Shown here in pieces: positions 44,386 through 46,350 of a stretch of 64,000 nucleotides of DNA. The translations under genes and the position numbers were made by a program. How positions within the stretch are numbered: position 1 is the first letter of the stretch; every line of letters begins with the position of its first letter. The notes under the pieces are model-generated. The model was given only the letters and a program-made list of their open reading frames with translations. It had not been told where the DNA came from and ran no database searches. Source of the DNA: Escherichia coli (GTDB taxonomy: Bacteria; Pseudomonadota; Gammaproteobacteria; Enterobacterales; Enterobacteriaceae); assembly GCF_030384885.1 (NCBI RefSeq), contig NZ_CP128613.1. The stretch is one strand, 5' to 3'.

Positions 44386-46350
44386 GTGAGCATGGATATA
44401 AGCGATTTTTATCAGACTTTTTTTGATGAAGCGGACGAACTGTTGGCTGATATGGAGCAGCATCTGCTGGTTTTGCAGCCGGAAGCGCCAGATGCCGAAC
44501 AATTGAATGCCATCTTTCGGGCTGCCCACTCGATCAAGGGAGGGGCAGGAACTTTTGGCTTCAGCGTTTTGCAGGAAACCACGCATCTGATGGAAAACCT
44601 GCTCGATGAAGCCAGACGAGGTGAGATGCAACTCAACACCGACATTATCAATCTGTTTTTGGAAACGAAGGACATCATGCAAGAACAGCTCGACGCTTAT
44701 AAACAGTCGCAAGAGCCGGATGCCGACAGCTTCGATTATATCTGCCAGGCCTTGCGTCAACTGGCATTAGAAGCGAAAGGCGAAATGCCATCCGCAGTGG
44801 CCCGATTAAGTGTGGTTACCAAAAGTGAACCGCAAGATGAGCAGAGTCGCTGTCAGTCACCGCGTCGAATTATCCTCTCGCGCCTGAAGGCCGGGGAAGT
44901 CGACCTGCTGGAAGAAGAGCTGGGACATCTGACAACCCTAACTGACGTGGTAAAGGGGGCGGATTCTCTCTCGGCAATATTACCGGGCGACATTGCCGAA
45001 GATGACATCACAGCGGTACTCTGTTTTGTGATCGAGGCCGATCAGATTACCTTTGAAACAGTAGAAGTCTCGCCAAAAACATCTCCCCCACCAGTGCTTA
45101 AACTGGCAGCCGAACAAGCGCCAACCGGTCGCGTGGAGCGGGAAAAAACGACGCGCAGCAGTGAATCCACCAGCATCCGTGTAGCGGTAGAAAAGGTTGA
45201 TCAATTAATTAACCTCGTCGGCGAGCTTGTCATCACCCAGTCCATGCTTGCCCAGCGTTCCAGCGAACTGGACCCGGTTAATCATGGTGATTTGATTACC
45301 AGCATGGGGCAGTTACAACGTAACGCCCGTGATTTGCAGGAATCAGTGATGTCGATTCGCATGATGCCGATGGAGTATGTCTTTAGTCGCTATCCCCGGC
45401 TGGTGCGTGATCTGGCGGGAAAACTCGGCAAGCAGGTAGAACTGACGCTGGTGGGGAGTTCTACCGAACTCGACAAGAGCCTGATAGAACGCATTATCGA
45501 CCCGCTGACCCACCTGGTACGCAATAGCCTCGATCACGGTATTGAACTGCCAGAAAAACGGCTCGCCGCAGGTAAAAACAGTGTCGGAAATTTAATTCTG
45601 TCTGCCGAACATCAGGGCGGCAACATTTGCATTGAAGTGACCGATGATGGTGCGGGGCTAAACCGTGAGCGAATTCTGGCAAAAGCGGCCTCGCAAGGTT
45701 TGACTGTCAGCGAAAGCATGAGCGACGATGAAGTCGCGATGCTGATATTTGCGCCTGGCTTCTCCACTGCGGAACAGGTCACCGACGTCTCCGGGCGCGG
45801 CGTCGGTATGGATGTCGTTAAACGTAATATCCAGGAGATGGGGGGGCATGTCGAAATCCAGTCGAAGCAGGGCACAGGTACTACCATCCGCATTTTACTG
45901 CCGCTGACGCTGGCAATCCTCGACGGCATGTCCGTACGCGTTGCGGATGAAGTTTTCATTCTGCCGCTGAATGCGGTCATGGAATCACTGCAACCCCGTG
46001 AAGCTGATCTCCATCCACTGGCCGGCGGCGAGCGGGTGCTGGAAGTGCGGGGTGAATATCTGCCCATCGTTGAATTGTGGAAAGTATTCAACGTCGCGGG
46101 CGCGAAAACCGAAGCCACCCAGGGAATTGTGGTGATCCTGCAAAGTGGCGGTCGCCGCTACGCCTTGCTGGTGGATCAATTAATTGGTCAACACCAGGTT
46201 GTGGTTAAAAACCTTGAAAGTAACTATCGCAAAGTCCCCGGCATTTCTGCTGCGACCATTCTTGGCGACGGCAGCGTGGCACTGATTGTTGATGTCTCCG
46301 CCTTGCAGGCGATAAACCGCGAACAACGTATGGCGAACACCGCCGCCTGA
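44386..46350 (+). CDS. cheA: Chemotaxis histidine kinase CheA (long form from GTG 44386; internal in-frame start for the short form at Met98, nt 44677)
   Basis: 654-aa product (V)[54 protein letters not shown]... within track ORF 44332..46350. Confidence 0.93.

Follow-up and report, generated by a model that had tools for sequence, protein, structure and literature searches.

Translation starts of the cheA gene in an Escherichia coli flagellar and chemotaxis locus, and a candidate U-rich element upstream of the internal start

The chemotaxis gene cheA is a standard bacterial example of a gene that yields two in-frame proteoforms, and both of its starts have been known since 1980–1991. For E. 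coli K-12, passages of two later papers trace these starts to Smith and Parkinson 1980 and Kofoid and Parkinson 1991 (cited in PMC12350097; PMC7696710). Two alternative initiation codons give rise to CheA, and the short form has its own endogenous ribosome binding site (RBS) (PMC2716512). The short protein, CheA-short, is without the first 97 residues (PMC8563088). It starts at ATG-98, is removed by the substitution M98L, and is dispensable for chemotaxis (PMC7696710). Most CheZ goes to the receptor array via CheA-short, to which the variant CheZ-F98S is unable to bind (PMC7696710). Two CheA forms are found in both E. coli and Salmonella, and in vitro CheA-short/CheZ dephosphorylates CheY-P faster (PMC3676780). 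Co-expression of CheA-long and CheA-short in other Enterobacteriaceae is credited to McNamara and Wolfe 1997 in passages that cite that work (PMC3676780; PMC8745638).

The gene is given as a standard in-frame isoform gene, and it is grouped with infB, ssaQ, and ccmM as tandem in-frame-start genes (PMC12350097; PMC11005335). Like cheA, infB (IF2 isoforms), Salmonella ssaQ, and cyanobacterial ccmM have a second start inside the coding sequence, in frame and with a separate RBS, and yield an N-terminally truncated proteoform with a distinct role. The proteins encoded by infB, ssaQ, and ccmM and their functions are unrelated to CheA, and the likeness is an analogy of mechanism rather than homology.

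The window analyzed here is a stretch of 64,000 bases of E. coli DNA. Its nearest record is NZ_CP027579.1 (E. coli 2013C-4282), positions 535609–599608, which is collinear with the window and has 10 mismatches, none of them within 44386–44679. The differing sites (window positions 1108, 21841, 23240, 29054, 32372, 40991, 41982, 44051, 53024, and 61509) comprise six synonymous changes, three intergenic changes, and one replacement, YecA Ala60 to Gly. Transversions account for 6 of the 10, a ratio that is unusual among very close relatives, and these differences may be sequencing or assembly differences.

The genes of the region follow the order flhD, flhC, motA, motB, cheA, cheW, tar, tap, cheR, cheB, cheY, cheZ. 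A promoter-like site of the sigma-28 (FliA) type, which has one mismatch to TAAA-N15-GCCGATAA and is a consensus match only, lies upstream of motA and is presumed to be the promoter of the motA-motB-cheA-cheW transcript. With this site present, and with fliA and flhDC both in the window, the expression context of cheA is in place. Sigma-28-type matches lie before fliD (16614–16640, minus strand), fliC (16733–16759, plus strand), motA (42375–42401, plus strand), and tar (46961–46987, plus strand), and those before fliD and tar are exact. Matches with at most three mismatches number 107 in the window versus a shuffled expectation of 57, or about twofold; this excess fits a window that consists mostly of flagellar and chemotaxis operons. 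Elsewhere, positions 5471–9910, adjoining fliE, hold emrE, ybcL, and ybcM, followed by a truncated IS200/IS605 tnpA and an intact insQ (a TnpB-family RNA-guided endonuclease).

The gene at 44386 is cheA. Its product carries the five CheA domains P1–P5 in CheA order, with P2–P5 all above the Pfam cutoffs. The Hpt domain (P1), which contains the HSIKG motif, is matched by Pfam with an E-value of 1e-19. The protein scores 1339.7 bits against the NCBIfam equivalog for enteric CheA (NF007835), for which the cutoff is 793. Residue 1 of the protein aligns with the first residue of E. coli CheA chains in the PDB (6s1k, with a length of 654, and 2lp4), and for 654-residue chains residues 1–144 align to 1–144. 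RefSeq places the cheA start at the same GTG in strain 2013C-4282 and in a derivative of MC4100 (K-12). A mechanical list of open reading frames runs the cheA frame upstream to a TTG at 44332, which is simply the first possible start after a stop. His48, which we take to be the phospho-accepting histidine, holds position 48 when numbering begins at the GTG. The features of the locus are collected in Table 1.

Table 1. Positions of the cheA starts and related features in the window
Feature	Position	Strand	Comment
Sigma-28 (FliA)-type promoter-like site, TAAACTTT-N11-GCCGATAT	42375..42401	+	Lies in the 3'-terminal part of flhC, ahead of motA
motB	43455..44381	+	Stop TGA (44379-81) falls within the RBS of CheA-long; the GTG follows after 4 nt
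Long-form Shine-Dalgarno, GAGGTGA	44375..44381	+	Overlaps the motB stop codon
start(L), GTG of CheA-long (654 aa)	44386..44388	+	Sequence, RefSeq, PDB chain length
cheA CDS (CheA-long)	44386..46350	+	654 codons plus stop, no internal stop (translation)
CheA domains	Residues 8-100 (Hpt), 161-223 (CheY-binding), 261-324 (dimerisation), 372-508 (HATPase), 514-640 (CheW-like)		
His48 codon, CAC	44527..44529	+	Only in CheA-long
U-rich stretch, codons 88-93 (AUC AAU CUG UUU UUG GAA)	44647..44664	+	-30 to -13 of AUG98
Short-form Shine-Dalgarno, GAAGGA	44667..44672	+	Within codons Thr94-Lys95-Asp96 (ACG AAG GAC), 4 nt before ATG98
start(S), in-frame ATG, Met98	44677..44679	+	CheA-short initiation codon
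CheA-short reading frame	44677..46350	+	557 aa plus stop; without residues 1-97, including His48
cheZ	52673..53317	+	Intact, 214 aa; residue 98 is F (CheZ F98S binding defect: PMC7696710)

An initial annotation had claimed that cheA carries both an intact GTG start and an intact in-frame short-form start at Met98, and the sequence bears this out. The GTG at 44386–44388 is followed by AGC ATG GAT ATA AGC GAT TTT TAT CAG, encoding S M D I S D F Y Q. The ATG at 44677–44679 lies 291 nt downstream, which corresponds to 97 codons, and is therefore in-frame codon 98. Relative to the K-12 gene, the locus has the same gene in the same place after motB, with the same GTG, ATG-98, RBS motifs, and spacings. 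Within 44350–44400 and 44640–44700, the window is identical to MC4100. The 501 nt around the starts contain seven substitutions relative to MC4100 (44418, 44451, 44464, 44538, 44726, 44786, and 44800), none of which falls in the start contexts. Later in P1 and in the linker, the protein carries a few amino acid substitutions, among them Asp114 in place of the K-12 Ala and Met134 in place of Thr (residues of K-12 worked out manually from the list of substitutions). The same 501 nt are found at 95–100% identity in 5378 of 5426 complete E. coli genomes, always with motB and cheA annotation. The dual-start arrangement is already known, and this is an ordinary E. coli cheA with starts identical to those of the laboratory strain.

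The two start contexts were also compared with the complete E. coli genomes. Of the 5378 matching genomes, 5344 carry exactly the same 81 nt around start(S). The 81 nt centered on start(L) are one base off nearly all other E. coli genomes, with 2013C-4282 the sole 100% match and the remaining 5377 genomes differing by at least one base. Relative to MC4100, the differing base is the private synonymous substitution at 44418 (codon 11, Thr, ACT here vs. ACA in MC4100). It sits in the loop of a small hairpin predicted at about 44407–44429.

To extend the comparison beyond the species, a pattern scan for a CheA coding motif was used. It matched at least 120 loci in diverse Proteobacteria, with Salmonella absent among the matches listed. 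These matches include 26 motB-linked orthologues from Enterobacterales, that is, the window and 25 other loci. The sequence GAGGTGA-N4-GTG-AGC-ATG is present in 26 of 26, and codon 98 is likewise ATG in every one of these listed orthologues. In their GTG start, the GAGGTGA over the motB stop, and the Met98 ATG, the other Enterobacteriaceae resemble E. coli. Most non-enteric CheA proteins among the matches listed are without Met at 98; Halomonas-type sequences read KDML and those of Alcaligenaceae KDVL.

Several loci in the scan stand apart. Second cheA-like loci are found in Enterobacter sp. BIGb0383 (L027) and Pluralibacter gergoviae (L076); these two, together with L029, L120, L036, L051, and L091, have a different upstream context or a codon-3 start. 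Members of this second-locus or codon-3-start set keep Met98, and their codons 90, 92, and 93, invariant in motB-linked orthologues, vary. In Salinicola tamaricis (L038) and Vreelandella lionensis (L116), the 47 codons before the His motif are not CheA in frame, a break that looks like a frameshift, due either to a pseudogene or to an assembly error. One locus labeled E. coli SCPM-O-B-8794 (L087) has identical codons at 75% of identical cheA residues shared with the window. It is far more divergent than the 95–100% DNA identity seen among the 5378 complete E. coli genomes and is probably a divergent Escherichia lineage; it retains AAGGACATCATG exactly.

Each start is preceded by a Shine-Dalgarno (SD) motif. 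The GAGG core of the long-form motif (44375–78) stands 7 nt ahead of the GTG and pairs with the anti-SD at a computed −7.2 kcal/mol. Upstream of 44677, where the initial annotation had advised that RBS strength be inspected, AAGGA (44668–72) is separated from the ATG by the four nucleotides CATC, and its computed pairing energy is −5.4 kcal/mol. Both RBS motifs, the start codons, and the spacings are unchanged from those quoted for E. coli, for which a passage in PMC8745638 gives 'gagguga' (long) and 'gaagga' (short) from McNamara and Wolfe 1997. The opening energy of the start(S) region is 9.5 kcal/mol versus a background of 13.4 ± 3.9 kcal/mol, which makes it comparatively accessible, although this is weak evidence.

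We consider it nearly certain that the locus is the standard E. coli motA-motB-cheA-cheW operon with two cheA initiation sites and a long and a short protein product. Ribosomes completing motB, or bound at GAGGTGA, would start at GTG 44386 and produce CheA-long, the His48 autokinase. Separately, ribosomes would bind GAAGGA inside the coding sequence and start at ATG 44677, yielding CheA-short. The short protein, which keeps the end of P1 plus P2–P5, would be without the phosphorylation site, still enter receptor arrays, and bring the CheZ phosphatase there. The statement in the initial annotation that E. coli makes both proteins from two starts agrees with published work (PMC2716512; PMC7696710; PMC8563088), and expression of both CheA forms in this strain can safely be expected from the intact sequence.

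A minor third product could in principle begin at Met81 (ATG 44626). Within 44618–44628, this codon follows GAGGTGAG at a spacing of 4 nt, and the heptamer is identical to that of the long-form RBS. The computed pairing energy of −7.2 kcal/mol is stronger than that at Met98, so the site is equal to or better than the short-form start by this measure. However, the codons for Arg78, Gly79, and Glu80 vary freely in other Enterobacterales, where synonymous diversity is average, and the SD-like motif is seen only in Escherichia among the orthologues sampled. The predicted opening energy at Met81 is high when wider flanks are included (17.7 kcal/mol with 70-nt flanks and 13.6 kcal/mol with 100-nt flanks), although it is 8.7 kcal/mol with 40-nt flanks. 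Moreover, the literature describes two products, the short one of which is lost by M98L alone (PMC7696710). We therefore rejected Met81 as an additional start, since its SD-like motif, although good in E. coli, is not conserved, and judge a product from this codon to be very unlikely.

The two-start model places the beginning of CheA-long at the GTG. That translation might begin instead, or also, at the codon-3 ATG (44392) is suggested by lineages and paralogues in which the gene opens with the corresponding ATG (MDISDFYQ) and the bases immediately 5' of it form a stop or are unrelated. Such starts occur in Yersinia, Rahnella, Rosenbergiella, and Vreelandella and in the second copies of Enterobacter sp. 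BIGb0383 and Pluralibacter (L027, L029, L036, L051, L076, L091, L120, and Vreelandella). The alignment to the NCBIfam CheA model also begins at residue 3, and the computed opening energy is lower at this ATG. In contrast, the spacing from the SD core is 7 nt to the GTG but 13 nt to the ATG, and GTG-AGC is invariant or nearly so in the 26 motB-linked orthologues among the matches listed, whereas the 4-nt spacer before it varies. The GTG is used by RefSeq and by 654-residue PDB chains, and the field's numbering (His48, Met98, 654 aa) starts there. N-terminal sequencing by Kofoid and Parkinson (1991) reportedly put the CheA-long start at the GTG. A codon-3 start in this strain therefore seems most improbable. 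With the GTG as the long-form start, the placement of the motB TGA inside GAGGTGA, 4 nt away, is the arrangement expected for translational coupling, and suggests that long-form translation may be coupled to motB.

The remaining question for the short form is whether Met98 is merely an internal methionine in this strain. In-frame ATGs are common in cheA, with six in the first 134 codons (codons 3, 23, 69, 81, 98, and 134). An in-frame ATG by itself is no more than expected by chance, and the sequence pattern is without power to single out Met98. The SD pairing at Met98 is modest, and this residue, which is also present in some Vreelandella CheA proteins, could be kept for protein structure. 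Codon 98 is meaningful because it is at the same position as the experimentally defined K-12 start, and not by pattern alone. The start context is the same as in K-12 strains, which make the short form and lose it with M98L. In addition, the strongest synonymous constraint of the gene lies directly upstream of Met98, a pattern that cannot be put down to protein structure. We therefore regard a failure to make the short form in this strain as extremely unlikely. An origin of CheA-short from an internal transcript or from proteolysis can be dismissed almost entirely, since no sigma-70-like promoter between the cheA starts was found in 44200–44900, and papers describe an alternative initiation codon with an endogenous RBS (PMC2716512) and abolition of the short form by one change at codon 98 (PMC7696710).

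A natural disruption of the long form was found in E. coli ET245 (L003; NZ_CP100978.1, 1047–2501), where an IS3-family element lies inside cheA between both starts. The element comes after a 150-nt Hpt fragment, and cheA resumes at the equivalent of window position 44530, such that the long form is destroyed and ATG98 and its RBS remain.

Synonymous codon diversity was measured across the whole gene in 18 full-length Enterobacterales orthologues among the matches listed. These have identical codons at 34–52% of residues identical to those of the window, except L087 at 75%. The lowest 15-codon windows of all 654 codons start at codons 79–93, followed by those at the gene's 5' end. With per-amino-acid normalization, the windows at codons 79–93 are still the lowest (percentile 0.2–1.5), and for the window from codon 87 the probability from random sets is 4e-5. 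The low diversity persists when each genus is represented by a single sequence and when the set is subsampled at random, so that amino acid composition was ruled out as its cause by the normalization and subsampling. Likewise, protein conservation does not explain the signal, since the region of the His48 motif is equally conserved in protein and has high synonymous diversity.

The signal is concentrated in Ile88, Asn89, Leu90 CTG, Phe91 TTT, Leu92 TTG, and Glu93 GAA (CUGUUUUUGGAA). The codons for Leu90, Phe91, and Glu93 are invariant in 26 of 26 motB-linked orthologues among the matches listed, and the upstream CUGUUUUUGGAA stretch is common to Escherichia and other Enterobacteriaceae. This comparative pattern supports the existence of a functional nucleotide element upstream of start(S) that would be common to Enterobacterales. 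We infer that the U-rich stretch from −30 to −13 may contribute to internal initiation, and consider it a candidate upstream element.

The SD motif shows a different distribution. The codon for Lys95 is AAA in 23 of the 26 orthologues listed, giving AAAGAUAUU, and is AAG only in the window, the divergent Escherichia locus L087, and Enterobacter sp. Ag1. Outside Escherichia, the sequence before ATG98 is therefore usually AAAGAUAUU rather than the AAGGACAUC of Escherichia, a replacement that leaves the SD weaker there. Among the matches listed, AAGGA is not conserved outside Escherichia, and the motif is essentially Escherichia-specific. With AAA at Lys95 in so many orthologues (23 of 26), conservation does not point to the SD, and SD conservation was ruled out as support for start(S).

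A more specific proposal is that initiation at Met98 in Enterobacterales rests mainly on the U-rich CUGUUUUUGGAA (44653–44664, 13–24 nt upstream) and not on the SD, with the AAGGA created by Lys95 AAG being an addition of the Escherichia lineage. We put this forward tentatively, as a possibility that is rather doubtful at present. The stretch could act, for example, as an enhancer of the ribosomal protein S1 type or as a standby site. A narrow literature search that did not include the primary cheA papers found no report of a U-rich element at cheA Met98. If the proposal is true, then the stronger AAGGA (Lys95 AAG) would raise the ratio of short to long form.

RNA structure was considered as another possible basis for internal initiation. 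Kofoid and Parkinson are said to have noted inverted repeats that flank both cheA starts. A 9-bp stem (44653–61 with 44680–88) can loop the SD and AUG98, and is the fold of lowest energy both in E. coli and in many relatives. However, folding energies around the starts are no better than those of shuffled sequences (z 0.40 and 0.12). The stem shows no compensatory changes in 28 distinct sequences, and shuffled controls do equally well. The hairpin was therefore rejected as a mechanism, being without covariation support and without energetic excess over shuffles. No Rfam match at E ≤ 1 was found in the region, and the antisense open reading frames at 44344–44760 and 44412–44678 have no Pfam match.

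The two intact starts show only that the chemotaxis operon of this strain is wild-type in this respect. The comparative evidence indicates that, across Enterobacterales, selection acts at the nucleotide level on the internal initiation region, and that this selection falls on the U-rich stretch upstream of the SD and not on the SD itself. The constrained codons offer concrete synonymous mutations with which CheA-short may be tuned or abolished while CheA-long is left unchanged.
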